IMG/VR virus record: IMGVR_UViG_3300045988_094921
Location: 1 to 31,673 of that record
Length of the DNA: 31,673 nt
Strand: one strand, 5' to 3'
Source of the DNA: a virus
The position numbers were made by a program, and so were the translations under genes. Positions 2,044 through 30,431 of the stretch are shown in pieces; position 1 is the first letter of the stretch; every line of letters starts with the position of its first letter. The notes under the pieces were generated by a model, which was not told the origin of the DNA, did not search any database, and saw nothing but the letters and a program-made list of their open reading frames with translations.

Positions 2044-2703
2044 ATGATTATACTTAAGAATACTAAAAATACACAAACTTTTTATGTAAGTAAGAAATGT
2101 GGTATTGAACCTGGACAACTTCCTGTTGGTTCTTATACTAAGATTGAAGCAGATGAAAGATTTCAACCTAAAGGTAATTACATTTCTGAGGAGAAAGCAG
2201 AAGAGTTAATTGATACTAAAGTAACAGAAAGTATTGAAGATCAAGTTCCTCCTTTAGTAGATCAATCTATAGATGCTAAACTTGTTCCAATTAATACTGA
2301 GATTACTAATCTTAAAGGGGAAGTTGAGGAGTTAGAAACTTCTAAGATGGAAGTATTCCAAGCTAATCAACCTCTATCTTTACATAGAAATGGAGAAGGT
2401 TTGCAACTATCTGTAGATTTAAGTAATTATGCAACTAAAGCAGAAATTCCTGATACTAGTGATTTTGCTACTAAAGAAGAGCTTACAGCTGTAGAGAATA
2501 AGATTCCTGATGTATCTGGATTAGCTACTAAAGATGAAGTTGCACTTAAAGCAGATAAAAGTGAGTTATCAAACTATGTAACTACAGATGCATATAATAC
2601 AAAGATGACAGAGTTAGATGGAGAAATCTCAGCAATTCAAGCTCAGATTGGTAATATTTCAACTACTCTTGATACAATTAATGGTGAAATTCCAAATGAA
2701 TAG
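2044..2703 (+). CDS. Tail fibre-like coiled-coil protein
   Basis: 219-aa ORF with repeated xxATKxE(I/L/V) units ([51 protein letters not shown]), the same repeat family as the fibre genes at both window ends. Confidence 0.7.
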
Positions 2704-3217
2704 AGTATTAACAAATTATCCTAACTATAGTGTATCTTCTACAGGAGATGTATATAGTAACCCATTGACTTTTAAAGATTCTATTGGAAGAACCAGAAAA
2801 CAAATACATAAAAAGCTAAAACAGCATATAGATAAATATGGCTATAATTATGTAATTCTAGTATCTGGCTTAGATAAACCTAAAGCTATTAAAGTTCACA
2901 GACTAGTAGCAGAAGCATTTATTCCAAATCCTGACAATCTACCATATGTTAACCATATAAATGAAAATAAGACAGATAATAGGGTAGAAAATTTAGAATG
3001 ATGTGATGCAAAGTATAATAATACATATGGAACTAGAATAAATAGATGTATTGATAAAATTAGTAAACCTGTAGGGCTATTTATTAATGATTTACTAGTT
3101 AAAACATATAAAAATGCAATTGAAACATCAATAGATGGGTATACTCATAGTAGAGTTATAGATTGTCTTAAAGGAAGAACAGACACTTATAAAGGGGTAA
3201 AATTTAAATATATCTAA
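2696..3217 (+). CDS. HNH homing endonuclease (NUMOD4-like N-terminus, HNH core, C-terminal DNA-binding module), copy 1
   Basis: The ATG at 2696 overlaps the upstream TAG (ATGAATAG). [12 protein letters not shown]...[17 protein letters not shown] then TGA (2999-3001) then [12 protein letters not shown]. This is the conserved NLEWC motif, and the paralog at 13407..13901 spells the same W with TGG. TAA at 3215-3217. Confidence 0.85.
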
Positions 3218-4191: not shown

Positions 4192-4242
4192 TGTCAGTTT
4201 TTATTTTTTCTTAGTACTTTGAGTGAGTAAAAAACTTGACAT
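4192..4242 (+). repeat. Conserved ~50-nt intergenic dyad element, copy C
   Basis: TGTCAGTTTTTATTTTTTCTTAGTACTTTGAGTGAGTAAAAAACTTGACAT starts 2 nt after the upstream stop codon. The arms TGTCAGTTTTTA and TAAAAAACTTGACA are inverted repeats. Confidence 0.8.
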
Positions 4243-4736: not shown

Positions 4737-5814
4737 AACAAAAGTTCAGTTAAGTGCTATTGATCCATTTATTGCAAGTAATATCGTATTACCTACAGAA
4801 ACTAAAGTGAGAGGAAAAGATTATGTAATGTGAGGAGAAGATAATAAATATCCATTATATCTATGGGATTTATATTTAAATGTTGCCACTCTCCAATCCA
4901 TTATTAATGGTTCTGCTGACTTTATTGTTGGTAACGATGTTAAATGTAATGCTCCAGGATTTGAGGTAGTTGTAAACAAGAAAGGTGAAACAATAGTTGA
5001 TATAATGAGAAAAATCACTATTGATAAGATGATATTTGGAGGTTATGCTATCCAAGTAATTAGAGATATGCTCGGAAGAGTTGCAGAGATCTATCATATT
5101 GATTTTATGAATGTAAGGTCAAGCGAAAAGAATGATATATTATATTATGCAACTGATTGGACAGCTTGGTCTGTAAAAGCTATAAAATATCCAAAATTTG
5201 GAGCTGGGGATGAAAATCCAGCTAGTATATTTTATAATAAAGGTTATATAACAAGAGGAGTATATCCTATTCCTGTTTATGGAGCTGCTATTTTATCTTG
5301 TGAAACTGAGAAAAATATTAATGAATTCCATTTAAATAACATCAATAATGGATTTATGGGTAATCTTATTATTAACTTTAATAATGGGGAACCTACAGAT
5401 GAAATTAGAGAGGAGATTGAGAGGAATATTAATGAGAAGTTCTCTGGTTATCAGAATGCTGGCAGAATATTGATTTCATATAATGCAGATGAGGCAAATA
5501 AGACTACTATTGAAAGATTAGATTCTGATGATTTTGATGAGAAATATCAATCATTATCTGAGAGAACCAGAGATCAAATATTCTGTGCCTTCAGAGCTAA
5601 TCCTTCGTTGTTCGGTTTAAACTATAGCTCAGGATTTAATGAAAATGAGTTTAATGAAGCATTTAAGCTATATAATCGTACTTTTGTACGCCCAATACAA
5701 TCAGAAATTTGTGACTCATTTGATAAAATCTTCGGCATTAAGAATAGTATTACTATTGAACCATTTAGTTTAACTCCAAAAGGAATGTCAGACAATGCAG
5801 AAAATGTTGAATAA
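4723..5814 (+). CDS. Portal protein
   Basis: The ATG at 4723 is in frame with track ORF 5005..5814 through one TGA (4831-4833, YVM-W-GEDNKYPLYLWDLY). 363 aa. The overall pattern (IINGSADFIVG..., MIFGGYAIQVIRD..., FMGNLIINFNNG..., SERTRDQIFCAFRANPSLFG) resembles phage portal proteins. Confidence 0.7.
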
Positions 5815-6447
5815 TTATACAGTGTACTGCCATAAGAATATAGCTGATAATAAATTATATTTTGGAATAACATCACTTACTTTAAATAATAGATGGGGAA
5901 CTAAAGGTCAAGGTTACAAGAATAATCTTTATTTTAGCAGAGCAATTAAAAAATATGGTTGAGATAATTTTGAGCATATTATAATTAGAGATAATCTTCC
6001 AGAAGCTTGTGCTAAGACTTTAGAAAAGATTCTGATTTATAAGTATAATACTAGAAATCCAAAATATGGGTATAATTTAACTGATGGAGGAGACGGTACT
6101 TGTGGATATTCTTTTTCACAAGATTATAAAGATAGTCTTAGAATTATAAGATCAGGAGAAAATAACTCATTTTATGGTAAACAGCATTCAGATGAAAGCA
6201 AGCGTAAAATGAGGGAGGCAAAACTCCTTGAAATAAAGGTATGAAACTCTCAGATAAAGAAAAACAACTAATTTCAGAACGTCAGTGCAAAAAAGTATAT
6301 AAGTATGATTTAGATGGTAATTTTATTTGTGAGTATAAATCAGCTAAGGAAGCTGGAGAGAAGAATAATGTAGATTCTTCTAGTATATCTAGATCTTGTA
6401 GAAAAAATAAACCCTGCAAAAATTATAAATATTATTATGGAATATAG
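5804..6447 (+). CDS. GIY-YIG homing endonuclease, copy 1, with a broken reading frame (needs a -1 shift at A-run 6220-6223)
   Basis: Frame 2 from ATG 5804 gives MLNNYTVYCHKN..KLYFGIT...AIKKYG(TGA)DNFEH...YGYNLTDGGDGT...FYGKQHSDESKRKMREAK. The C-terminal DNA-binding part (KTP(TGA)NKGMKLSDKEKQLIS...KVYKYDLDGNFICEYKSAKEAGEKNNV) is in frame 1 (track ORF 6241..6447). Frame 2 itself stops at 6269-6271. Confidence 0.7.
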
Positions 6448-8359: not shown

Positions 8360-8808
8360 TGAAATATTTTACTATTAGTGAATTAACAAGATCTGATACA
8401 GCTTCTATTAAGAAGATAGATAATACTCCAAATAAAGAGATTACTGAACACCTTATAGAGTTAGTCGAGAAACTTTTAGACCCATTAAGAAGTGATTGGG
8501 CAGAGTATTGTGATGTTAATCGGTTGGGGAATCCAGCAATAAGTGTGAATTCAGGTTATAGATGTAATGAGCTTAATAAAGCTGTAGGAGGATCTTTGAC
8601 ATCTGCCCATCTAACAGGATATGCAGCAGATATAATTCCAAGTAACGGCCAAATGAAAGAATTTCAGGTTTGGATTACTGAAGCTATTGAAAAGTATGAT
8701 TTTGACGAATGCTTTATAGAAAGAAGTAGTACTGCTCACTGAGTGCATATTGCTTTATATAGTATTAAAGGATTACAACGAAGAAAGAAAGGTAATTTAT
8801 ATGTATAG
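8359..8808 (+). CDS. Endolysin, peptidase M15 (zinc D-Ala-D-Ala carboxypeptidase / L-Ala-D-Glu peptidase fold)
   Basis: [28 protein letters not shown] then ...ERSSTAH-(TGA 8740-8742)-VHIAL. The conserved W-x-H metal-ligand motif is spelled with TGA. The true stop is TAG at 8806-8808. Confidence 0.8.
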
Positions 8809-9391
8809 TGTATATGTTCATTTAAACAAGATTAATGGTAAGAAATATATTGGAATTACTTGTAAGAAGCCAGAGATACGATGGGCAAACGGTCTTGGCT
8901 ATAGAAAACAGCCATTTGAAAATGCTATTAAAAAATATGGATGAGATGGATTTGAACACATTATAGTTAAAGAAGGATTACCAGAAGCTTGTGCTAAAAC
9001 ATTAGAGAAGATTCTTATTTATAGATATAATACTCGTAATCTGAAATACGGTTATAATGCTACAGACGGAGGTGATGGCACATTAGGAATTACATTTACT
9101 CAAGAAAGAAAAGACAAGATAAGAGCTAAAAGTATTGGAAGACATCCATCAGAAGAAACTAGGAAAAAGATGAGTGATAGCCAGAAAGGAAGAGATTTGA
9201 GCTATTTAAATAATTCTTTTGGTAATAATCCAAGAGCTAAGAAAGTAGGTGCATATAAAGATGATATTCTTATTAAAGAATATGATTGTGCAGTTAGTGC
9301 TTCTTTAGATGTCGGAGTTCATAAAAATTCTATTGCTAAAGCAATTAGAGAAGGTTATAAAGTAAAAGGATTCAAGTGAAGATATGTTTAA
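8801..9391 (+). CDS. GIY-YIG homing endonuclease, copy 2
   Basis: [20 protein letters not shown]...AIKKYG(TGA 8942)DGFEH...[12 protein letters not shown]...[16 protein letters not shown]...KGFK(TGA 9377)RYV. Track ORFs 8750..8944 and 9170..9379 share a frame. TAA at 9389-9391. Confidence 0.85.
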
Positions 9392-9900: not shown

Positions 9901-9951
9901 ATGTCTATTTTTTACTCAACTAATGTATATAGATAAAAATAAAAATAGACA
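9901..9951 (-). repeat. Conserved ~50-nt intergenic dyad element, copy A (minus orientation)
   Basis: The reverse complement reads TGTCTATTTTTATTTTTATCTATATACATTAGTTGAGTAAAAAATAGACAT and starts 2 nt after the helicase stop codon. The arms TGTCTATTTTTA and TAAAAAATAGACA are almost perfectly complementary. Confidence 0.8.
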
Positions 9952-11697: not shown

Positions 11698-11747
11698 TGT
11701 CTATTTTTATTTTATCTATACACATCAAGTGAGTAAAAATTTGACAC
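11698..11747 (+). repeat. Conserved ~50-nt intergenic dyad element, copy B (plus orientation, inverted relative to copy A)
   Basis: TGTCTATTTTTATTTTATCTATACACATCAAGTGAGTAAAAATTTGACAC, 26 nt upstream of the helicase start codon. Its reverse complement matches 9901-9951 at about 43 of 51 positions by hand alignment. Confidence 0.8.
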
Positions 11748-11900: not shown

Positions 11901-11932
11901 CAAATATAAGAATAATTTTTTTAATCTACAAA
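11901..11932 (-). promoter_or_regulatory. Bacteroidota-type promoter P1 (TTTG-N20-TATATTTG), tandem duplicate of P2
   Basis: Plus-strand CAAATATA at 11901-11908 and CAAA at 11929-11932, with a 20-nt spacer. About 40 nt of flanking sequence is similar to P2, 81 nt away. Confidence 0.55.
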
Positions 11933-12406
11933 ATTTTTAGCACTTTTTCTTGTCCAAAGTTTTGTTAACTTTTTACCATTTTCTTTTTCATATCTTTGGT
12001 TAGCATATGTAATTCAATTCCAATTTAGTGCATTTAAAGAGATTGCTGCCCTACTTAAAGAAACCCCAGATAAACATAATTCTACTAATTTATCTATATT
12101 ATCATTATATCACTCTTTTTTACTCTGTTTATTTATTGTTACGTTATGTGCAGTTTTAAAATCATTCAGCAGCTCTACAATTAACTCATCTGGCAATTCT
12201 AATCATTCTGAATTACTTTTAGTTTTATATGCTCTATATTTATCCCTATAGTAATTTTCATCATCTCTAGTTCCATCTTTAACTATAAAAAATTCTATTA
12301 TTTCATTTGGAATAGCGTTCTTATACGAAGTTAGCCTACTACTTAAATTAGAAGTATATCCAACTTTAATGAAATTTGTCTTGGCTAGTTTAATTACGTA
12401 AATCAT
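11921..12406 (-). CDS. T5orf172/MUG113-type GIY-YIG-superfamily domain protein
   Basis: MIYVIKLAKTNFIKVGYTSNLSSRLTSYKNAIPNEIIEFFIVKDGTRDDENYYRDKYRAYKTKSNSE(TGA)LELPDE. This is the characteristic EWF/EWL motif. It continues through TGA at 12203, 12110 and 12014 to TAA (plus-strand TTA at 11921-11923). The track ORF N-terminal extension (12407-12514) is rejected. Confidence 0.7.
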
Positions 12407-12983: not shown

Positions 12984-13420
12984 TGAAAACAGATATAAGA
13001 AGCTTAGTCTTTACAAAGAATCTATTTAAAGAGAAATTTAATATAGACATAGAATGATGTAAAGACGATTACTCCAGATATGATGGAACATTTAATTGGA
13101 ATGGAATTGATTATATAATTGAAGTTAAAAGGAGAAGATTTAATTCTAATAAATATCCAACCACTATTATTAATAGGGATAAATTTGATATGCTATCAAG
13201 AAATAATTCTATATTAGTAATAATATTTGATGATGGAGTATATATATTTAAAGATATAAAACAAGCCTTTATAAAGGATTCTATGAAATATGGTTGTTCT
13301 ACAACAGATTTTGGAGGAACTTATGGCTATTCATTAAAAACAGAGTTGTCTTTAAAGAAAGCCATTAAGATAGATGTAAATACAGAATTTAGTAATTATA
13401 TAGCAAATGATAGCCTATAA
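12983..13420 (+). CDS. Possible PD-(D/E)XK-family nuclease
   Basis: The TAATG start at 12983 is joined to track ORF 13190..13420 through TGA 13055-13057 (NIDIE-W-CKDDY). YDGTF...IDYIIEVKRRR resembles a D...ExK active-site arrangement. The functional call is tentative. Confidence 0.45.
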
Positions 13421-13901
13421 AAGAATACTTAATTTTGAAAACTACCAAATTGGAACTGATGGCTCAATATGAAGTTTAAGAGCATCAGTTCCAAAGAGGT
13501 TAAAACCTCAAGTAAAAACTAATGGGTACTTTACAGTAACATTATATAATAAAAATTTGAAAAAGAAGTGTTATATACATAGATTAGTAGCTGAAACTTT
13601 TATATCTAATCCGAATAACTATCCTTGTATAAATCATAAGGATGAAAATAAATCAAATAATAATGTAAGTAATTTAGAATGGTGTACTTATAATTATAAT
13701 AATAATTATGGAACTCATAATCTGCGAGCTGGATATAGTCATAAGAAACCAATACTGCAATTACTAAATGGAATAGTTATTAAAAGATGGGATTCAGCAA
13801 TAGATGCTGAGAGAGAACTAAATATACAATCTAGAAATATTGTAAAGGTTCTTAAAGGGCAGCGAAAAACAGCAGGAGGATATATGTGAACATATGAGTA
13901 A
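13407..13901 (+). CDS. HNH homing endonuclease, copy 2
   Basis: MIAYKRILNFENYQIGTDGSI(TGA)SL (NUMOD4-like), HRLVAETFISNP...INHKDENKSNNNVSNLEWCT (this W is TGG), ending GGYM(TGA 13887)TYE with TAA at 13899-13901. Confidence 0.85.
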
Positions 13902-14202
13902 TAACGAAATTGTAGAAAAGTACTATCCATTTATTATGGAACTTAAGCAAAAATTTGGTGCAGATGATGACTGTGTTCAAATGATTTTTGTAGAAATACT
14001 AGAGTATTCAAATCCAAAATTAAATCAGCTTGATAGCAAAAATGAATTGAAATTTTGGATTACAAGATTATTTAAGAATTATTGGTTTAGTAAAACAAGT
14101 AGATATTACTATACCTATAAGAAATATTATGAGATTGTTAAAGAACCACTTGAACAACAAAATGACGAATTGGAGGATTGATTAAATGAAACGGAAGATT
14201 AA
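13894..14202 (+). CDS. Sigma-70/ECF-family sigma factor, region 2 only (N-terminal half)
   Basis: ...CVQMIFVEILEY...ELKFWITRLFKNYWFSKTSRYY matches the region 2 pattern (...WL..IA+N...D..R+). Under code 4 it reads through TGA 14179-14181 to TAA 14200-14202. About 102 aa, with no region 4. Confidence 0.55.
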
Positions 14203-14439
14203 TATTGACGATTTACTTACTGAGTATGAAATAGACTATAGTATGTTTACAAATATGGATGATAGACTATTAAGTATATATCCAAAATGACTTGAGCTTA
14301 ATAAGGCAGATAAGACAGTAATCATATTATATGCTGAATATCACAGTTATAGAGAAGTGGGAAGAATATTAGGAATTAGTCATACTACCATAGCAAGGTG
14401 TATAAGTAATATTAGAAATAAAATATGTGGAAGGATATA
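14186..14439 (+). CDS. Sigma-70/ECF-family sigma factor, region 4 only (C-terminal HTH half)
   Basis: ...LNKADKTVIILYAEYHSYREVGRILGISHTTIARCISNIRNKI is a typical region 4.2 helix-turn-helix. It sits in a separate frame, with a TAA immediately upstream of its ATG. One TGA at 14288-14290. It is preceded by GGAGGA, the only strong SD-like sequence I saw. Confidence 0.55.
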
Positions 14440-14910
14440 GCTAATTATGAAGGTCTTTATAAAGTAAATAATATCGGAGAAGTTTATAGTATAAGGACAA
14501 ATAAATTTATTAAACCTACTATTAGAAATAACTACTTAGCAGTAGGACTATGAAAAAATGGAAAAGTTAAAATGAAGTCTATACATAGATTAGTAGCTGA
14601 AACATTTATACCAAATATATATAATTTACCAGAAGTAAATCATATTAATGAAGATAAGACTGACAATAGAGTCGAAAATCTAGAATGATGTACTAGGAAA
14701 TATAATACAAATTATGGAACTAGAAATAAAAAGATTTCTTCTTACCTTTCAAAACCTGTAGCTCAATATGATCTTAACGGAACTCTAGTTAAAAAGTATA
14801 ATTCTATTAAAGAAGCTGCGAAAGCTTTAGGTAAGTGTGATTATTCAATTCGAGCTTGTTTATATGGCAAATATAAAACAGGTTATAATTATGTATGAAG
14901 ATTATGTTAG
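14425..14910 (+). CDS. HNH homing endonuclease, copy 3
   Basis: MWKDIANYEGLYKVNNIGEVYS (NUMOD4), HRLVAETFIPN...[17 protein letters not shown](TGA)CTRKYNTNYGTR, with a C-terminal YDLNGTLVKKYNSIKEAAKALG module. Three in-frame TGA. TAG at 14908-14910. Absent from the standard-code track. Confidence 0.85.
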
Positions 14911-15233
14911 AATTATTTATAATAGCAGTAATAATAGTCTTTATAATTGATTTATCTGGGGCTTTGGATAGTTTTAAACACAGTATTTGAAAAAGACTAT
15001 TTAAAGGTATACCTTATAAAGAAGATTGAAGACTAAAACCTTTAGATTGCAGTTTATGTATGACTTGGTGAATTGGATTAATATATATTCTTATTACAAG
15101 TCAATTTTCAATTTTAATGGTTGGATATATTGCACTATTAGCATTTATGACTCCAATTATTAAAGATATTATGATATTATTAAAAGATGCATCTACTAAG
15201 CTGATAGATGTTATATACAAACTTATTAATTAA
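14895..15233 (+). CDS. Hypothetical integral membrane protein (112 aa)
   Basis: MKIMLELFIIAVIIVFIIDL...LDCSLCMTW(TGA)IGLIYILITSQFSILMVGYIALLAFM. Three in-frame TGA. Absent from the standard-code track. Confidence 0.55.
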
Positions 15234-17251: not shown

Positions 17252-18036
17252 ATGATAAAATCTTGGAATGAAATGAATTTAGCTCATTATAGAAAACTAT
17301 TGGATGTAATTAGAAAAGAATGAGAAAATGAATTAGATATGAATTTAGCTATGGTATCTGTACTTAGTGATATTTCTTTAGAAGAAATTCAAAATATGGA
17401 GCTGAATAAATTACAAGAATTAATTAACAATCTTAAATTTGTAGAGAGTACATATAAACCTAAAACTCCAGAAACTAAATATATTATTGGAGACAGGGAA
17501 TATAAAGTCTTTTTTAATGTTAATAAGATGACTGCAAGTCAATACATAGACTTCCAGAATTTTTATAAGAAGTATGATGATTATATGCCAAATCTAGCTG
17601 CTTGCTTTTTATTACCAGAAGGTAAGAAGTATGGAGAAGATTATGATCCTTTGGATGAAGCAGAGTTTTTGAATAATCATTTAACAATTGATGTATTTTC
17701 AGATATAATGTTTTTTTTTGTAAACTTATTGCGACTATCAACTCTGAGTACCCTACACTCTTCGGAAAGGGAGATGAAGAAGAGACTAAGGAAAACCAAG
17801 GACAAACTGGAAAGGAGAAAGATTCTAAGGAGTCTGATACAGATGAGACGGTTACTCCTTTTACTCAAAAATGAAGCTGAATTATCTGAATAGATAAAGT
17901 AAGTGAGGTTACTAAATTTAATTGGCATCAAGTTTATGATATGCAAATTAAAGAGTTCTTAAATACAATTTGTTATGTTATAGATAAAGCTAATGAAGAA
18001 AATAGACAAATTGAAGAATGAAAACGAAAACATTAA
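17252..18036 (+). CDS. Structural-module protein needing a -1 shift at a T9 run (possible tail assembly chaperone-like frameshift gene)
   Basis: ATG 17252 (MIKSWNEMNLAHYRKLLDVIRKE(TGA)ENELD...) runs into track ORF 17339..17893. After T9 (17711-17719) the -1 frame gives a protein-like 105-codon continuation (CKLIATINSEYPTLFGKGDEEE...PFTQKWSWIIWIDKVSEV...) ending at TAA 18034-18036, just before element D. Confidence 0.55.
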
Positions 18037-18038
18037 AA

Positions 18039-18088
18039 TGTCAGTTTTTATTTATTTTAACTACTAAATTTGAGTAAAAACTTGACAC
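18039..18088 (+). repeat. Conserved ~50-nt intergenic dyad element, copy D
   Basis: TGTCAGTTTTTATTTATTTTAACTACTAAATTTGAGTAAAAACTTGACAC, starting 3 nt after TAA 18034-18036. Confidence 0.8.
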
Positions 18089-18647: not shown

Positions 18648-20828
18648 ATGGCATTTATACCAAGTAAATTAGGAATATATAACGCATCAAGGAGTTTTCC
18701 TGTTAAATGGAATAATCCTGGATGGGGAATTACTGGAGAATATGATTATTGGGCTTGGGGAGATGATTATACTGAAGAAGGGCCTTTAGAGGTAACTATA
18801 CAGGATCCAAGTAAAGAAGGATGTACAATACAATTTTTATCTCCTACAACAATAACTACTGATTCTTCTACTGTATTTCATTTTTATCCTAGAGGCATTA
18901 CTACTGCTTTTTTAGAGGAAGATTTACCAATTAATTTACATAGTAAAGCTCCTGGATATTATCCTGCTAATGGCACCATTAAAGTACCAAATACTGGTGG
19001 AGAATATACAGTAGAGTATATATTAAATAGATCAGATATTATTAAATGAGATGCAGCAGTTGTTAATGCTACAGCTTTAGTTAATATGGAAGTTCTGGAT
19101 TGAGATTCTTGCTCTATTAAGTTTAAAGTTACAGTAAGAGCTAATACTCAATGAAATACTGATTTAACTGCAACTATCCAATTAGGGGCTTATTATGATA
19201 CTAATAAATTTATTAGTTATAGTTATGGCTTTAAGATTGAAAAGAGTAATACTCCAGAAGATTTAAAGTTAGTAGTAACTCCTTCTTCTGGAACTTATGG
19301 AGCAGCTGCTTTTGTTACTGAAGAATTTCATTTAAGTACAACTAAAACAGAAGAAACTATTACTTCATTTAATGTTACCTGCCCTCAAGCTAGTAATATT
19401 AAAAAGGATATTGTTGATAACTATTTTGTATTAACTGTTCCAGAGAATAAAACTACTAATAATTTGGAGTTTAGTGCAATGGTTACTGCAACAACTTCTG
19501 GAGGTTATAATCTTGAAGCTACAGTTCCAATTAAACAAGCTGCAACATCTTTAATGATTCCTAATACTAATTATGAAGTAAGTTGAACTGCATCTACATT
19601 AAATATAATTGGTACAGGCTCAAATAACTTAGATGATGTTGTATTTAGTATTCCTGTAGGTTGGATTAGTGGTCAGAAGTTCTCTGTGAATCCTCAAGGT
19701 GTAGCAACTATTAGTTTGAACATTGCAGAAAATTCAGGTTTATCTTCTAGACAAGCAACTATTGGAGTATCTGTTATAAAGAATAGTTCAAGTATTATTA
19801 ATTTATCTATTAATATTACACAATCTGTTAAATCTGATATATCTCCTATTTGGAAAGATTATGTTTGGAATGAGATAATCAGTTCAGATTTTATTGAATA
19901 TCATCTAGATTATGCAGGAGATATGGTTTATGCTGGAAAAGCTTATAAATATCCTGAAACAGATAGAGTAGAGTTTCTATTAAATAATGTAGCTGAAAAT
20001 TATATATCTAATGGGATTATATTTAATACTTCAAAGACAATAGTATCTCCAGAATATCTAAAACCATTTACATTAATAACTTCATCTGGAAATGAGAAAC
20101 CAATTACTTTTTTCAATGATTGGAGTTATAAAGATAGAGATTTGACTAAAGGCACTATGTTAAGTGATCCTATTACTGGTTTAGTTGATCCAAGACAATA
20201 TTTAGTAGCAAGTTGAATTTTACCAACTGGAACTGGAGTTGTTAATAGATTCTTTTATATAGATGGAACATCAACTGCTATAGATATTAGTTTAAATTCT
20301 GGAATTAATGGATATACATATACAGAAGATTTAAGTAATAAATTATGGCCTTGTGGAAGCTATTTAATAGTAGGATTTGTAGAAGGTGGAAATATTAGTG
20401 ATAGACAGATTAGATATGATATAGATACTACAGGTAAAGATTATGTGCTATATTATACTAATTCAGCAGGTGGATGAGATTCGTTACTTGTTGAGGGTAA
20501 TGTTAAAAAGAATGATGAGATTAAATCTGAAACATATACTCGCAAGGTATTAAATACATCACAAGAGTTTGCAAGAAATAAGTATTTGAATACTATAACT
20601 TCAAGCTGGGTTCTTTATACTGGTTATTTAAATGATATTCAAGCTTCTAAGATGTTTAATTTAATTGAGAGTACTAAAGTATATTTGCATAATCTTAAAG
20701 ATAATACTATCACTCCAGTATTGATTACTGATACAAATTGTGAATATAAAACTTATACTAATCAAGGTAAGAATAAGTTCTACTATACAATTAATGTGGA
20801 AGCTTCTCAAGATACTTATCGTAAATAA
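18648..20828 (+). CDS. Large tail structural protein (726 aa) with Ig/BACON-like repeats, possible distal tail protein
   Basis: Track ORFs 18648..19049, 19686..20216 and 20586..20828 are all in frame 0. They are joined through TGA at 19047, 19101, 19152, 19584, 20214 and 20475 with no TAA or TAG. Repeated ~90-aa beta-rich segments end in ...RQATIGVSV-type motifs. Confidence 0.7.
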
Positions 20829-20830
20829 TT

Positions 20831-23800
20831 ATGAGAAAGAATATTAAATTATTTATTGCAGGAAAAGAAGTACATTGTTCTGAAGGCATATCATTACCAA
20901 TGACTTATACTGTAGAAGATTTTCAGAATCCAACAATAGTAAAAAATTCATTCAGTAAGACTATAAGCATTCCAGGAGACAAAAATAATAATAAGATTTT
21001 TGGAGAGATTTATAAGTTAGATAGATTTCTCCATATAAAAGAAGGTAATTTCTCTGGCGTATATTTTGATCCTTCAAAACGAGTTGATTTTGGAATTTAT
21101 AATAATGGCTATTTAGTTGAATCTGGATATATGCAATTAAATAGCATATCTATAAAACAAGCTGTCATTACTTATAATATTACTTTATATGGAGGATTAG
21201 GAGATTTCTTCTATGGACTTAAATATAAAGAAGATGGTACTATTAGGACTCTTGCTGATTTACAATACTTTGTAACTGATGAAGATGGGAATACACTTCC
21301 TGCTGATACTGAACTTAATTTTTATATTAACAAAGATTTTGTAAATACTTGTTTTGACTGAAGTAAAACGAATGAAGGAAGTCAAATATATGATTATTTG
21401 ACATTTATTCCAGCATATAATGGTTTATATGAAGATTTTGATAATGAAACTTGTTTAATAAATACTAATGAAAATAGTATATTTCCTACTAGTAAGACAG
21501 ATTCAGGAGTTACATATACACCTTATAATGGGTATGGATTAGCTAAATTAAATAGAGCATATACAGAATGGGAGATGAGAGATCTTAGAAGTTATATGCA
21601 AAGGCCAGCTTTAAAATTGAGTAAGTTAATTGAAACTATCTGTAGAAAAGAGAATTCTGGATATGATGTAGTATTTGATCCTTCATTTTTTAATTGAAAT
21701 AATCCGTATTGAAGTAAATCCTTTGTAGCTTTACCTTTATTATCTAATCTAGTAAGTGACGAAGAAGATGTAACAGAATCTGGCTTTTTAGTAGAAGATA
21801 GTAAATATAATTATCAGGTAGGTATAAATAAAGGAGAATCTACATCAAGTCCTTTAAAATTATCCATTGCATCACCTGATATTGTTTACGATTCTGGAAT
21901 AATTGATTTAAGTGAGGCTGGATTTAGAAAAAGCCTTTCTACAACTTTTTATTTTAAGTTAAAGTTTAATCGAACTGCAGGAAATGTTGGGGATAGATAT
22001 TTTTTTGGATTTAGAAGGTATTTTAGCTCCTCTGCTCCTCCTTTTTATTCAGCATATAGAGGATACGCTGATGTTTGGCTAACAATTACTAATGAAGTAG
22101 ATGATACTATTTATACTTCTGAAATACATAGATTTACAAATTCAGGAACCTACTCACATCCTATAGCTAATGGGGTTAATCATTTTGGGTATTTTCAAAA
22201 TAATGTATTTTATGATACTTCTTCATTAACTAATGATTTTGTTATTAATATTACAAATTTTAAAATTCCAATTAATAAAATTAAAATTAAACTTAATGTT
22301 GTATGATCTACTGGAAATAGTGTTCGCCCTACTGGATTATTAAGTGAAGTAATAGAAAGAGGAGAGGATTACCAAGCTATTCCAAAAGGAGATCTTATAG
22401 TAGATCTTACTTCTCCCATTGAAATTACTACTTCTACAGAGGTACTTCAAAGTAATGCATTATTAACTAAAAAATTATTATTAAAAACAGAACAATCTCC
22501 TGCTGATTACTTATTGAGTTATGCAAAACTATTTGGGTTATATTTTACAAAAGATATTGATAGTAAAACAATTAGAATATATACTAGAAATAATTTCTTT
22601 AAGAATATAATCTCTGATTGGAGCAAGAGAATAGATTATTCTAAAGATTTCAATGTAAATCCAATATTATTTGATAAGAAGTGATATAGAATGAGTTCTG
22701 AAGGTCCAGAAACTTATTTTTATAAAAAATACAATAAGGAATATTCTATATTATATGGTCAACAAAGATTAAATACTGGTTATAATTTTAATTCTGAAAC
22801 AACTGAACTGTATAGTGATAATATATATGAAAATATAGTTTCTGCAAGATGGAGAAATAAATATTTTAGAAATTTTTACAATTCTTCTTCCCTTGTAGTT
22901 CCTGCATTTATGAATGATAATATTACCTATACATTATTTAATAATAGCACTACTGAACTTAAGACTATAGATCAAGAGTTATACGGAGCTAATTTTATAG
23001 ATCCCTCTAAAACCACAGAATGATATAAAATCGCAGGTAATGATATATTTGCCAAAAATGTATTTTTCTCAATTGATGGTAATGAGGAATCTTTAGAGGA
23101 TATCTCTCAATCCCTAGTATTCTTTAACGGTAATGTTCCTTTAACTGATGTAAAAGGAAATGAAGTAACATATTGAATTACAGATGATCTTACAGAAATG
23201 AACATATTAAATGATCAGGAAATGTGTTATATATCTACTAAAAGTGAGAAAGATATTAGGGGGAATAAAATTGCTATAAAGAGAACTGTATTACCTCAAT
23301 TTACAAGGTATACCGTTTCGTCCTCTAATGTTACTGCTTCTTGAGATTTTGGATTACCACAAGAGATTTATATTGATGATATAACTTATAATATCGGAAG
23401 TACTATTTATAGTAGATTCTGGAGTGAATTTTATAATGATCAATTTGATGTAAATACTAAAAAAGTTACCTGCTTTGTAAGATTGGATGATTTAGATGTT
23501 AAGTATGATTTACTTAGACAGTTCTATTATTTTGAAGATTCTTACTGGGTACTTAATAAGATTGACGCTTATGATATTAATTCAGATTCTACTGTTAGAT
23601 GTGAATTTATTAAAGTTCAAGATATTAATAGTTATTTAGCTGGAGTTCAAAATCTAGGTGAATATATATCATTTGATGATTCAGATCCAGTTGTAGATTA
23701 TAAAGCTGGGACTAAAAAGATTACAGTTACTTCTAATATTCCTTGAGAATTAGGATGATATAGTCCAAATGAAATTGTAAGCATTACACCTGAATCTGGG

Positions 23801-24187
23801 CAGCCTGGAGAAACAGAATTGACAGTTACATATAATGAGAATACTACATATGACCAAAGGAGTTTCTATTTTAGTCTTTATAAACAAGGAAGTATAAATG
23901 GCCCTCAATGTATGTTTACTCAAACTCCAGACCCAAATAAAGCTATTCTTATTACAGGAAAGCTTCAAACTTCTACTGGAGGTATTCCTTCTGGTGTTAA
24001 TCAGATTCTAACTGAAAATGATAATGTCTTAAATGTCACTTATATGAGAGATGATGGAAGTTATAGAATATATGCTCAAAATGGAGTTCAATTTTTATTT
24101 AGAGTATCTGACGGACCAACAGGAACAATTAAATATACAGAGAATTTAACACTAACAGAAGATACTGTTAAAAATATTACAATCTAA
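20831..24187 (+). CDS. Very large tail or baseplate protein (1118 aa) with a C-terminal BACON-like domain, probable host-recognition or tail-tip protein
   Basis: Track ORFs 20831.., 21398.., 22691.., 23483.. and 23819..24187 all share frame 2 and are joined through about ten TGA codons. The C-terminal IP(TGA)ELG(TGA)YSPNEIVSITPESGQPGETELTVTYNENTTYDQRSFYFSL looks like a BACON domain. TAA at 24185-24187 overlaps the next ATG. Confidence 0.7.
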
Positions 24188-26947: not shown

Positions 26948-26967
26948 GTGAGTAAAATTTCTGACAC
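26948..26967 (+). repeat. Half copy (3' arm only) of the conserved intergenic element
   Basis: GTGAGTAAAATTTCTGACAC lies 1 nt after the tape measure stop codon. It matches the GAGTAAAAA..TGACAC half of the element. Confidence 0.6.
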
Positions 26968-27025
26968 ACTACTATGTAAGTTGCTGATTATCAGTGCTTA
27001 TATAGTAGTGCTATGTCTATTTTAT
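26967..27025 (+). terminator. Long hairpin plus T-rich tract (terminator of the tail operon)
   Basis: 14-bp stem CACTACTATGTAAG (26967-26980) pairs with CTTATATAGTAGTG (26997-27010) with one G-T pair. It is followed by CTATGTCTATTTTATTTTTA, which is also the 5' arm of element E. Confidence 0.6.
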
Positions 27026-27062
27026 TTTTATTATATAACCTAGTTGAGTAAAAACTTGACAT
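27014..27062 (+). repeat. Conserved ~50-nt intergenic dyad element, copy E
   Basis: TGTCTATTTTATTTTTATTATATAACCTAGTTGAGTAAAAACTTGACAT, 79 nt upstream of the capsid-module start codon. Confidence 0.8.
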
Positions 27063-27140: not shown

Positions 27141-27731
27141 ATGGAAAAAATGTATAATGATCTTCCATTATATCAAGCAATTATTGCTGATGATTGTGAT
27201 GGAATAGAGTTCGTAGCATTGACCAGTAAACCTGCAACCCAAGTTAATTGGCTTGCTTTTGGGGAATCTCAGAAGTTCTCGATGGATGAAGAAAAACATA
27301 TAGTTACTTCTTGTTTAATGGTATGTGATATACCTATATTTAGACGGGATAGTAAAAACGGAGAATATTATATTCAATATGATAAAGAAACTCTCCGTTT
27401 AATGGCTGAAAAAATGATGTATGATAAGAGAACTACTGATGTAAATATTGAACATTTGGAAGATTCAGTAATTCCTGGAATAATTCTTCAAGAACTATAT
27501 GTTAAAGATATAGATAGAGGAATTAATCCAGTTGAATTTGCTGATTGTCCAGATGGTTCATTATTTGCTACTTATAAAGTAAATAATCCTGTTATATGGG
27601 ATGCAATTAAAGCTGGAAAGTTTAAAGGGTTCTCTATTGAGGGATTGTTTACTTTAGAAAGACAATCTGATGAATATGAGGAACTTAAAGAGATTCAAAA
27701 AATGTTGAGAAAAATAAAAAGAGTTAAATAG
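27141..27731 (+). CDS. Putative prohead serine protease (XkdF-like)
   Basis: 196-aa ORF directly upstream of the scaffold and capsid genes. The pattern ...IVTSCLMVCDIPIFRRD...DVNIEHLEDSVIPGIILQELYV... resembles the XkdF/Peptidase_S78_2 family. No TGA. Confidence 0.5.
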   Translation: MEKMYNDLPLYQAIIADDCDGIEFVALTSKPATQVNWLAFGESQKFSMDEEKHIVTSCLMVCDIPIFRRDSKNGEYYIQYDKETLRLMAEKMMYDKRTTDVNIEHLEDSVIPGIILQELYVKDIDRGINPVEFADCPDGSLFATYKVNNPVIWDAIKAGKFKGFSIEGLFTLERQSDEYEELKEIQKMLRKIKRVK

Positions 27732-27732
27732 A

Positions 27733-28344
27733 ATGTATAGTGGAGTTATATATCTAGCAACAAATCTTATAAATGGCAATAAATATGTAGGACAAACAAA
27801 TAATTTCTTGAGAAGAAAGAATGAACATAAATACAGTTCTAATCTTACATATTTTCATAGAGCGATTAGGAAATATGGATTCAATAACTTTAAATGGGAA
27901 ATTCTTCAAATCTTTTGTTGTTCTTCTACAGAATTATTGAAAAGACAACTAAATAATGCAGAAATTAAATATATTCAGTTATTTGATACATTAAATAATG
28001 GTTATAATTTAAATGAAGGTGGAGGTTCTAATACTGGATTTAAACACAGTGAAGAATCTAAACACAAAATGTCTTTAAAACAGTCTGGAAGAGTATTAAA
28101 GGATGAAACAAAATTAAAGTTAAGAGAATGTAGATTGGGAACTAAACAAACTGAACAGCAGAAAGAAAAAGTAAGTAAACGTATAATTATGACAGATATT
28201 AATGATACTTATATATGCACTTGGAAATCTGCTATGGACGCTGAAAGAAACGGAAATTTTGATCATAGTGCTATTATAAAATGTTGCAAAAATAAACAAA
28301 ACTATCATAAAAATTTTAAATTTAAGTATGAACAAATTAACTAA
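27733..28344 (+). CDS. GIY-YIG homing endonuclease, copy 3 (divergent from copies 1 and 2)
   Basis: MYSGVIYLATNLINGNKYVGQTNNFLRRKNEH...AIRKYGFNNFKWEIL, NUMOD3-like GFKHSEESKHKMS, and a C-terminal CTWKSAMDAERNG module. It sits between the protease and scaffold genes. No TGA; its Trp codons are TGG. Confidence 0.85.
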   Translation: MYSGVIYLATNLINGNKYVGQTNNFLRRKNEHKYSSNLTYFHRAIRKYGFNNFKWEILQIFCCSSTELLKRQLNNAEIKYIQLFDTLNNGYNLNEGGGSNTGFKHSEESKHKMSLKQSGRVLKDETKLKLRECRLGTKQTEQQKEKVSKRIIMTDINDTYICTWKSAMDAERNGNFDHSAIIKCCKNKQNYHKNFKFKYEQIN

Positions 28345-28939
28345 ACTGAGAATCGAACTTAGTAAACTCTTAGCAAAATTTAACGATGTTAAGACTAGTG
28401 CTGGAGTTCTAACTTACGATGGTAGTGAGGATGAGGATCTAAGGGCAGGTATGAGTGTATATACAATGGATACTGATACTGGCGAATATGCACCTGCTGC
28501 TGATGGTGAGTATGTTACCGAAGATGGCAAAACGATTGTTGTTAAAGACGGTAAAGTAGAGTCCATTACTGATCCTAAAGCTGAAGTTGATCCTGAAGAA
28601 GACAGAACTGTTGAGGTTGATGCTGCTTGTGGAACTAAGAGAGTAAAAGCTGAGGAAGTTGCTGATCCTGCTGTTGAAACAGACGGTGTTAAAGAAACTG
28701 AGACTGATGCAATCGACGCTATTCATCGCGAAATTAATGAGCTCTATGATATTGTAGATAAGCTTGTTAAGAAAGTAGCAGAACTTGAAGGAAAATCAGA
28801 AGCTACTGAAAAGACTGTAGAAAAAATGAGTAAGATGAGTGCTGCTTTTTCAGCAGAGGAAACACTCGAAAATAAAACAACTGCTCCTATAAGTGGAATA
28901 GCAGAAATAGATAGAAAGCTTAAAAACTTTATTGGTTAA
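28328..28939 (+). CDS. Scaffolding protein (putative)
   Basis: 203-aa highly acidic, helical and coiled-coil-prone protein immediately upstream of the major capsid gene. No Trp and no TGA. Confidence 0.6.
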   Translation: MNKLTKLRIELSKLLAKFNDVKTSAGVLTYDGSEDEDLRAGMSVYTMDTDTGEYAPAADGEYVTEDGKTIVVKDGKVESITDPKAEVDPEEDRTVEVDAACGTKRVKAEEVADPAVETDGVKETETDAIDAIHREINELYDIVDKLVKKVAELEGKSEATEKTVEKMSKMSAAFSAEETLENKTTAPISGIAEIDRKLKNFIG

Positions 28940-28960
28940 TTTATAAAATTTTAAATAATT

Positions 28961-29866
28961 ATGGCAAATAGTCCTGTAATGACAACTCTTCCTGCTTATG
29001 TGGAGCAAAGACGTCTCCCTCTTATTAAGGAAGCTGTTTTAAAAGCTAAGAGTGCAAGTTTGTTCAATCTTCAGACAGATATTAAAACTGATGCTGCTCT
29101 TAACCTGTTATCTACCGATGTTCAGTTCGGTGATGGTCTTACTTGTGGTTGGGATGAGGCTGGAACTCAGACTCTTTCTCAGAGAATTCTTAAGACTGGT
29201 AATATTAAGATTAATATGGCATATTGCGATAAGGCTATGCTGAAATACTGGACTCAGTATGCAGTTAAGGTAGCCGCTGGTCAGAAGACACTTCCTTTTG
29301 AAGAGGATTTCGTAAATGCTGTTGTAGAGAATGTAAAAGAGGCTATTGAGGTAGCTATCTGGCAGGGTGATACGGCTTCAGAAACTAATAACTTGAAGTA
29401 TTTTGATGGTCTGCTTAAGATTCTTGCTGCTGATAATGGTACTGTAGATGTAACAATTGCTGGAACATCTGCCTATACTGATATTATGGCAGTTTATAAT
29501 GCAATTCCTGAGAAGGTTCTTGATGGTGCTTCTATTCTTGTTGGTGCCGATATGTTCCGTAAGTTCGTAAATGAACTTGTTGAGAAGAACTATTTCCACT
29601 ATAGCGGAGAGAGCCTTAATGGTGAGATTTATCTTCCTGGTTCACAGGTTAAGGTTATTGCTGTTAATGGTCTTAATGGAACTGATAAGATTGTTGCTGG
29701 TCAGTTAGACAAGAACTTCTTCTATGGTGTAGATATGATGAACGATGAAGAGAAATTCGAATTGTGGTATTCACAGGATTTCCGCGAGTTCAGATTAGCT
29801 ATTGAATTTAACGCTGGTGTACAAGTTGCTTTCCCTGACGAAGTAGTATTAGGCGCCAAGGCTTAA
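28961..29866 (+). CDS. Major capsid protein (HK97-fold type)
   Basis: 301-aa ORF after the protease and scaffold genes. Visibly higher G+C and biased codon choice. All four Trp codons are TGG. Confidence 0.75.
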   Translation: MANSPVMTTLPAYVEQRRLPLIKEAVLKAKSASLFNLQTDIKTDAALNLLSTDVQFGDGLTCGWDEAGTQTLSQRILKTGNIKINMAYCDKAMLKYWTQYAVKVAAGQKTLPFEEDFVNAVVENVKEAIEVAIWQGDTASETNNLKYFDGLLKILAADNGTVDVTIAGTSAYTDIMAVYNAIPEKVLDGASILVGADMFRKFVNELVEKNYFHYSGESLNGEIYLPGSQVKVIAVNGLNGTDKIVAGQLDKNFFYGVDMMNDEEKFELWYSQDFREFRLAIEFNAGVQVAFPDEVVLGAKA

Positions 29867-29906
29867 TTTCAATAGATTTTATTAACTTCTAAATGATATT
29901 GAAATT

Positions 29907-30431
29907 ATGGCTTGTTTAATAACTATCGCAGGAATCACACTTGATTGCCAACCTTCATTGGGTGGAATCAAACAGGTATGGATTACCCAGTATGCAGATG
30001 TTAAAAGTGTAACGGTTGATCCTGAGAGCAATATGATTTCAGCTATTACTCTTGAGTCTTCAGCTAAATGGTATAACTACCAATTTAGAAAGGCTACTGG
30101 TTCTCTAACCTCAACTTTAAATGTAGATGAAAGTGCTGGTGTTAATTATGTAAGTAATGAGCTTGCTCTTGTATTTACAAAGATGGAAACAGCAAAACGA
30201 GTAGAGATTGCAGCTTTATCAATTGGTCAGCTTGCAGTTGTTGTTGAAGATAGCAATGGTAAGTATTGGTTCTTAGGTAAAGATGATTATGTAAGCGCTT
30301 CCGCTGGTACGGGTGTTACTGGTACTGCTAAAGGTGATCAGAATGCTTATACTCTGACACTTTCAACAGATTCAGATTCTTATCCTTATGAGTTATCTGC
30401 AGAAGCTATCCAAAGCGTTGTAGGTGCTTAA
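29907..30431 (+). CDS. Possible major tail (tube) protein
   Basis: 174-aa beta-rich protein (ITIAGITLDCQPSLGGIKQVWITQYADVKSV...LAVVVEDSNGKYWFLGKDD...) resembling siphovirus tube proteins. Same codon style as the capsid gene and followed by a strong terminator. Confidence 0.45.
   Translation: MACLITIAGITLDCQPSLGGIKQVWITQYADVKSVTVDPESNMISAITLESSAKWYNYQFRKATGSLTSTLNVDESAGVNYVSNELALVFTKMETAKRVEIAALSIGQLAVVVEDSNGKYWFLGKDDYVSASAGTGVTGTAKGDQNAYTLTLSTDSDSYPYELSAEAIQSVVGA

Follow-up and report, generated by a model that had tools for sequence, protein, structure and literature searches.

ORF1 and ORF2, a pair of small overlapping genes in a 31,673-nt stretch of viral DNA (positions 1 to 31,673 of IMG/VR record IMGVR_UViG_3300045988_094921; below, the window), probably encode, as two subunits, a divergent sigma factor of the extracytoplasmic function (ECF) type, group IV-like and carried by a ~32-kb gut phage that reads TGA as Trp. 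ORF1 (13894-14202, + strand, 102 aa) is the predicted sigma-2-like subunit; it includes the sequence ELKFWITRLFKNYWFSKTSRYY and the family signature W..R..KN.WFSKTS.YYY.YKK, with residues 1-65 forming a helical core and an acidic tail at the C-terminus. ORF2 (14186-14440, + strand, 84 aa) is the predicted sigma-4-like subunit, and includes the sequence YREVGRILGISHTTIARCISNIRNKI and a helix-turn-helix (HTH) at residues 37-80. An HNH endonuclease gene abuts each side of the pair. An earlier note on this DNA had read the two ORFs as sigma-2-like and sigma-4-like halves on separate polypeptides, and this is borne out by the complementary profile matches and the fused relatives described below. 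Its coordinates are right for ORF1, both HNH genes and the start of ORF2, and one base short at the ORF2 end (14439 for 14440).

The sigma assignment is based on sub-threshold profile matches together with fused relatives, rather than on a clean Pfam match. The best NCBIfam match of ORF1 is the sigma70-ECF family TIGR02937 (E 8e-4), with residues 4-94 aligned to profile positions 4-104 of 165, and all five of its NCBIfam matches are sigma families. ORF2 matches the same profile (E 2.5e-4) with residues 37-80 at positions 117-161 of 165, and therefore the two proteins span complementary halves of one ECF sigma profile. Recognisable sigma features include a DDLxQ helix (region 2.1/2.2), a W..RI..N stretch (region 2.3) and regions 4.1-4.2, while in place of region 2.4 the family has a motif of its own, S-K-T-S-x-Y-Y-Y-x-Y-K-K. 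When the ORF1 family was used as a profile in an exhaustive search, 481 relatives came up at E <= 1e-3. Sigma70_r2 is the most-matched Pfam family among the 150 best of these (31/150, best 8.9e-6), and the four PHROGs most matched by ORF1 relatives are all sigma factors, with phrog_1740 first (11 members, best 1.4e-9). Most close ORF2 relatives carry a precomputed PF08281 match.

Profile-profile comparison with hhalign places the two families on the same regions. With five E. coli sigma factors as templates, region 2 is matched by the ORF1 family (51%, E 1.5e-4) and region 4 by the ORF2 family (92.8%, E 3.8e-7), with both cross-domain controls at ~0.5%. A deeper ECF profile, made of Bacteroidota ECFs that pass Pfam r2 and r4_2 plus RpoE and FecI, gives 94.8% (E 4.8e-8) for the ORF1 family, ORF1 residues 13-66 lying on sigma residues 36-89 (region 2), and 89% on region 4 of the same template for the ORF2 family. 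An hhalign alignment to a single RpoE sequence is colinear, at only 6% probability, and PDB sequence searches with ORF1 profiles returned nothing meaningful. As judged from sequence, the sigma homology is remote but consistent across four libraries, with ORF1 predicted to be distantly homologous to sigma domain 2 and ORF2 to sigma domain 4.

That ORF1 and ORF2 may be halves of one functional unit is best supported by fused relatives. About 16 of the top 150 ORF1-family representatives are of fused size (156-245 aa), and in 14 of these the alignment shows an N-terminal domain like ORF1, joined by a variable acidic linker to an HTH domain at the C-terminus. Comparison of the ORF2 family with this C-terminal domain gives 95.5% (E 1.5e-8, hhalign). 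TIGR02937 is matched end to end by seven of the eight fused proteins scanned (E 7e-11 to 5e-6); the eighth reaches only 0.047. The best PDB sequence match of a fused-relative profile is region 4 of sigma-H (3mzy, E 0.0038), and there is a weak full-length alignment to RpoE. The question of whether relatives have a fused gene, which the earlier note had raised, is answered by these proteins, which carry both halves in order. Among the top 150 representatives there are about nine split forms to each fused one; the family's largest sequence clusters consist of split forms throughout, and the fused members are few and partly scattered.

Several results weigh against a sigma function for the pair. 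ORF1 has no Pfam match at all. The best Pfam match of ORF2 is HTH_50 (5e-8), and its Sigma70_r4_2 match (4e-4, 20.4 bits versus a cut-off of 25.7) is sub-threshold. The Pfam families proposed in the earlier note are matched by ORF2 (below the cut-off) and by some relatives of ORF1, but not by ORF1 itself. The curated cut-offs are not reached by ORF1, ORF2 or the fused relatives scanned: on TIGR02937 (cut-off 42.9 bits) they score 19.0, 20.7 and, for the best fused relative, 42.0. The Bacteroidota templates behind the strongest hhalign result were retrieved through an 8-mer (KDLAQDIY) that they share with family member P0284. The AF2 model of ORF1 is confident (pLDDT >90 for residues 1-65), and a Foldseek search of it against the PDB gives no significant match and no sigma factor at E <= 10. 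Against BFVD, sigma factors appear only at E 2.8-4.4; the other matches are uncharacterised phage proteins of 160-232 aa (TMq ~0.6) that are probably fused relatives. The ORF2 model resembles sigma-4, LuxR/GerE and TyrR HTH domains about equally (Foldseek, all E >0.5). No promoter motif could be tied to the sigma pair: a scan for sigma-70-type promoters gives 63 sites versus 71.7 in shuffled sequence, and TATATTTTA is not enriched (7 occurrences versus 4.9 expected).

Some of these points would suit an unlikely alternative, in which the two proteins have sigma ancestry and do not act jointly as a sigma factor. ORF2 would then be an ordinary HTH regulator (TyrR/Fis-like or LuxR-like) and ORF1 a separate RNA-polymerase-binding protein or another small helical protein, much as T4 gp55 acts without a DNA-binding sigma-4. 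The best ORF2 matches are indeed of the TyrR type (HTH_50 in Pfam; HTH_TypR in NCBIfam, 3.6e-6), Foldseek cannot tell sigma-4 from LuxR/GerE or TyrR for this protein, and no structural match ties ORF1 to sigma-2. However, gene order, overlap and the +1 frame are kept down to ~30% identity, the natural fusions of both domains match ECF profiles end to end, and the two proteins cover complementary halves of one sigma model. These features favour a two-subunit sigma factor.

The reading of the junction between ORF1 and ORF2 depends on the genetic code. Code 4 (TGA = Trp) is clearly in use in the window, because TGA codons lie in frame within long ORFs, no gene ends in TGA, and TGA and TGG exchange between relatives. 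With TGA read as sense, the summed ORF length goes up from 8,300 to 12,488 aa, and the long structural ORFs at 18648-20828 and 20831-24187 then hold six and ten in-frame TGA codons, respectively. None of the 40 genes ends in TGA, and the window has 55 in-frame TGA codons versus 69 TGG. The two codons swap at invariant Trp positions of ORF1: W55 is TGG in the window and TGA in relatives L001 and L002, and W64 is TGA in L005 and L009. Under the bacterial code in-frame TGA codons interrupt the region, and the earlier note, using the standard code, had ORF1 stop at TGA 14179. Because the window uses code 4, this TGA (14179-14181) is Trp codon 96 of ORF1, the ambiguity is gone, and the real overlap of the two genes is 17 nt (14186-14202). 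A further TGA (14288-14290) is Trp codon 35 of ORF2.

Neither ARAGORN nor Rfam found a tRNA or suppressor tRNA in the 31.7 kb of this ~32-kb genome. A 572-aa minus-strand gene and the genes of the capsid region (27141-30431) have TGG only. The idea of a code switch, with TGA gating a late sigma factor, was considered and dropped, since TGA and TGG are mixed in most genes and show no clean early/late partition.

Translation starts in the window mostly lack a Shine-Dalgarno-like sequence, with A/T-rich leaders before 38 of the 40 genes. Starts of this kind are what Bacteroidota-type translation initiation typically shows. In cellular genomes, relatives of the ORF1 domain are found in Bacteroidota only (L023-L037), where they are canonical ECF sigma factors. 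The two genes with GGAGG upstream of the start are ORF1 and ORF2 themselves. The GGAGGA that the earlier note saw before ORF2 is present at 14172-14177, 8 nt before the ATG, and encodes part of Leu-Glu-Asp in the ORF1 tail; it is not unique, as the note had it, since a second GGAGGA lies at 13875-13880, 13 nt before the ORF1 ATG. The ORF2-type GGAGGA is not visible in the printed L005 and L009 junction sequences.

The split arrangement is conserved. The loci examined comprise the close clade (L001-L004 and L010-L012), a clade at 64% (L005-L008), a relative at 53% (L009) and L019-L022, which have ~30-50% identity, use the standard code and show the same split. At every locus an ORF2 homolog in the +1 frame comes after an ORF1-like gene, and the two share 17-50 nt that include the ORF1 stop (17, 26, 50, 41, 41, 44 and 20 nt, always 2 mod 3). 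The ORF2 ATG is set inside Asp/Asn-Glu codons of the ORF1 acidic tail, and the pair is always preceded by a gene of ~145-159 aa and followed, a few genes later, by the large terminase. One of the loci, L019, belongs to a prophage within a bacterial contig of 148 kb; its ORF2 had been missed in gene calling but is there (76 aa, E 1e-16). Lengths of the 20 close ORF1 relatives are 98-102 aa, except for one 157-aa gene call (P0001); nearly all of the 109 ORF2 relatives are 79-89 aa, a few are shorter (47-58 aa) and none is fused. Values of dN/dS are 0.08-0.21 for ORF1 and 0.21-0.34 for ORF2. The two-gene form is conserved and under purifying selection, and the split appears to be old and widespread in an uncharacterised phage family.

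The split could in principle be damage, either a sigma gene inactivated by a frameshift or an assembly or sequencing error, and the existence of fused relatives means that one frameshift in the linker could create such an arrangement. This explanation has next to no probability. Hundreds of independent assemblies carry this pair of ORFs (ORF2 cluster P0023 is listed on 501 contigs, and in 874 blocks of the collection in the index). The split also holds across deep divergence, prevails over the fused form, and leaves both ORFs intact with invariant residues. The conserved split, the intact ORFs and the dN/dS values therefore exclude a pseudogene or assembly error.

A programmed +1 (or -2) ribosomal frameshift in the overlap, re-fusing the halves at least part of the time, is very improbable. 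It would fit the +1 frame of ORF2 in every lineage examined and the overlap that is always 2 mod 3, and the GGAGGA before the junction in the window loosely resembles the prfB stimulator. However, a TAA (14183-14185) in the frame of ORF2 stands directly before its ATG and closes the +1 frame, as the earlier note had correctly pointed out against simple frameshifting, leaving a stretch of 14 nt in which no known shift-prone motif occurs. An ATG of its own is present in every ORF2, the printed junctions show no overlap sequence conserved between clades, and the GGAGGA is not seen in L005 and L009. The constant frame is also expected from common descent when indels are multiples of three.

The two genes would instead be translated in a coupled manner from one mRNA, giving their products in similar amounts. 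Coupling at the 17-nt overlap is inferred because ORF2, in the +1 frame, has its ATG within the acidic-tail codons of ORF1 and runs across the ORF1 stop. ORF1, as the sigma-2 subunit, would dock on the beta-prime clamp helices of the host RNA polymerase and read a -10-like element, and ORF2, as the sigma-4 subunit, would dock on the beta flap and read a -35-like element; together they would redirect the host polymerase to phage promoters. In the fused forms, the counterpart of the ORF1 acidic tail and of the N-terminal 30 residues of ORF2 may be the linker. The long rightward operon has the pair close to its beginning, with the terminase and structural genes following a few genes later, a position that would suit a middle or late switch.

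A ~50-nt dyad, TGTC(A/T)(G/A)TTTTTATTT...GTGAGTAAAAA(C/T)TTGACA, repeats in long intergenic regions of the window. Copies lie on the + strand at ~4200-4242, 11700-11746, 18040-18087, 27012-27061 and 26949-26965 (partial) and on the - strand at 9902-9950, and include three exact 16-mer copies. A GC-rich hairpin directly follows three of the dyads (~4226, 11731 and 18072). The element is kept in close relatives, and in L009 its arms have changed in a complementary way (TGTGAG...CTTCACA). The dyad and its TTGACA were considered as a promoter recognised by the sigma pair and rejected, as they do not occur outside the close clade: L005, L007 and L019-L022 carry the pair and lack the element.

The closest known systems are the split ECF sigma factor SigO-RsoA of B. 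subtilis (PMC7826278), whose domain assignment is listed differently in PMC10141391, and the T4 pair gp55 and gp33 (PMC2988020). SigO-RsoA resembles ORF1/ORF2 in consisting of two small proteins from adjacent genes that place sigma-2-like and sigma-4-like functions on separate polypeptides. The likeness is one of arrangement, and SigO-RsoA is cellular, whereas ORF1 and ORF2 are phage-encoded. To our knowledge, SigO-RsoA is an isolated case. In ORF1/ORF2, by contrast, the split form is dominant in a family of hundreds of representative clusters with natural fused relatives.

T4 gp55 and gp33 are phage-encoded, like ORF1 and ORF2. In T4, gp55 docks at the sigma-2 site and reads the promoter while gp33 binds the beta flap at the sigma-4 site, and the pair has been called a split sigma; gp33 does not recognise DNA sequence, the late promoters have no -35 element, and activation requires the gp45 sliding clamp (PMC2988020). 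Unlike gp33, ORF2 keeps a canonical HTH of the region 4.2 type. No gp55, gp33 or gp45 families turned up in the PHROGs and Pfam scans, and no clamp gene was noticed in the window. Canonical single-chain ECFs, such as E. coli RpoE and those of Bacteroidota (L023-L037), have the same domains in the same order, sigma-2, linker and sigma-4, within ~170-200 aa in total. ORF1/ORF2 differ from these in being two polypeptides, in the altered region 2.4 and in matches that all fall below the curated thresholds.

No description of such a split-sigma phage family was found in the searched literature, and BLAST with ORF1, the fused relative P0253 and the split relative P0284 as queries found no homologs among ~50,000 deposited phage genomes. 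TerL of this phage has <30% identity to those of GenBank phages, and the matches of the locus in GenBank phages at the DNA level are to the HNH genes only. The phage resembles small TGA-recoded gut phage clades that have been described (bioRxiv 10.1101/2021.08.26.457843). It is possible, though this broader proposal is tentative, that the family is a large undescribed group of phage ECF-like factors in which the coupled two-gene form is dominant and long-lived and fused forms are occasional, the halves assembling on host RNA polymerase without a covalent linker and the acidic tail of sigma-2 replacing a sigma-3.2-type linker.

Very few sigma factors are known to be split in nature, namely SigO-RsoA and, in functional terms, T4 gp55/gp33; in the present family, whose hundreds of representative clusters come from gut and other metagenomes, the split form appears to be the usual one. 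If the pair acts as one sigma factor, the covalent linker between sigma-2 and sigma-4 would be dispensable in nature, and matched split and fused variants would be available for mechanistic work. It would also point to the transcription switch of a common, uncultured group of TGA-recoded gut phages. If the two-gene family is as proposed, it would, as the first such system in nature, offer many split and fused variants in pairs for probing the purpose of the ECF linker, and would also be a ready-made orthogonal two-part sigma factor, apparently for hosts that do not depend on Shine-Dalgarno sequences.

The flanking genes, here HNH-A and HNH-B, are both HNH endonuclease genes by their Pfam HNH_3/NUMOD and phrog_59 matches, as the earlier note had named them. 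HNH-A (13407-13901, + strand, 164 aa, two in-frame TGA read as Trp) matches HNH_3 (1.6e-5), I-HmuI_NUMOD-like (6e-8), phrog_59 (1.5e-39) and also NUMOD4. HNH-B (14425-14910, + strand, 161 aa, three in-frame TGA read as Trp) matches HNH_3 (3.5e-11), NUMOD1 (1.1e-11), NUMOD4 (1.1e-8) and phrog_59 (8.4e-45). Four states of HNH occupancy exist among genomes that are otherwise ~100% identical to the window: neither gene in L002, L010 and L012, HNH-A only in L011, HNH-B only in L001, L003 and L004, and both in the window. A MAFFT DNA alignment of the locus from six genomes delimits the two insertion cassettes.

The HNH-A cassette (13413-13899, 487 nt) is missing from L001, L002, L010 and L012 and is 100% identical in L011. 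It sits directly after the original ORF1 ATG (13407), which now starts HNH-A, and its 3' end supplies the new GGAGGA (13875-13880) and the relocated ATG of ORF1. The HNH-B cassette (14419-14897) is missing from L002, L010, L011 and L012. It lies just before the last three codons of ORF2, so that HNH-B now ends with the ancestral RLC-stop and ORF2 in the window has a new end, NKICGRI-stop, from the insertion. Each insertion is flanked by a diverged tract in the locus alignment. In the ORF1 5' end beside HNH-A (13900 to ~14010), L010 and L012 are ~53-65% identical to the window, and 100% identical on either side. In the ORF2 3' end beside HNH-B (14389-14418), TIARCISNIRN replaces the TIQRFIKQIRE of genomes without HNH-B, just after the HTH recognition helix. 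These tracts are probably cleavage-immune or co-converted sequence.

The pattern is that expected of free-standing homing endonuclease genes, an activity predicted from sequence here, and HNH-A and HNH-B would be invaders of both ends of a conserved gene pair. They share with I-HmuI-like HNH/NUMOD proteins and with T4 seg/mob-type intronless homing the combination of HNH_3 and NUMOD, presence or absence at exact gene junctions, and diverged flanks. HNH-A is unusual among free-standing phage homing endonucleases in that it takes the start codon from the gene it invaded and supplies that gene with another. The two genes offer what looks like a clean natural example of selfish endonuclease genes targeting both ends of a conserved regulatory gene pair, and the HNH-B insertion rewrites residues just after the sigma-4 recognition helix.

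The earlier note had suggested that homing endonuclease activity shaped or split this locus. Two HNH genes do abut the pair, and both altered the adjacent ends of the sigma genes (ORF1 5', ORF2 3'), so the first part of the suggestion stands. That such activity split an originally fused sigma gene here is hardly credible. Neither HNH gene lies between the halves, the ORF1/ORF2 junction is identical in genomes with no or one HNH gene, and distant standard-code relatives are also split. Because relatives free of HNH genes (L002, L010, L012, L005-L009, L020 and L022) have the same two-ORF arrangement, the split predates the insertions and is independent of them. The HNH genes are thus best described as apparent later selfish insertions that reshaped the ends of the sigma genes and did not cause the split.

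Endonuclease genes are met again at these junctions in other genomes. The HNH-B allele of L001, L003 and L004 differs from that of the window, encoding 184 aa (6544-7098 in L001) at 35-78% nucleotide identity. A NUMOD4/HNH-type gene at 3450-4016 of L021, a distant relative with the standard code, abuts the start of the ORF1-like gene. The window has five more free-standing genes of the homing-endonuclease type, at 2618-3217, 5795-6271, 8750-9391 and 27733-28344 on the + strand and 11921-12406 on the - strand; one is HNH/NUMOD4, three are GIY-YIG (two with NUMOD3) and one is T5orf172/MUG113. The total is at least seven selfish endonuclease genes (three HNH, three GIY-YIG and one T5orf172), or ~12% of the ~32 kb.

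The gene after HNH-B (14895-15233) encodes a small hydrophobic protein of 112 aa, which is probably a membrane protein and follows ORF2 in the relatives examined. In genomes without HNH-B its ATG overlaps the ORF2 stop (ATGTTAG), and the three genes are thus chained by overlaps.

L011 is a near-identical copy of the phage at ~171-191 kb within a 198,436-nt ENA metagenome scaffold, and this copy may be integrated or concatenated, in which case it would reveal the host. A genome scan with the close-family ORF1 profile found no prophage of the close clade.

An apparent gap of 263 nt after the gene at 17252-17893 encodes a conserved peptide (17677-18036; ...SEVTKFNWHQVYDMQIKEFLNTICYVIDKANEENRQIEEWKRKH) in the -1 frame, without a start codon of its own. 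A slippery run, T TTT TTT, lies at 17713, and the peptide is kept in L001, L005, L007, L009, L011 and L020, with TGG in L020 for a TGA of the window. A programmed -1 frameshift or transcriptional slippage may thereby extend the product of the gene that comes after the terminase.

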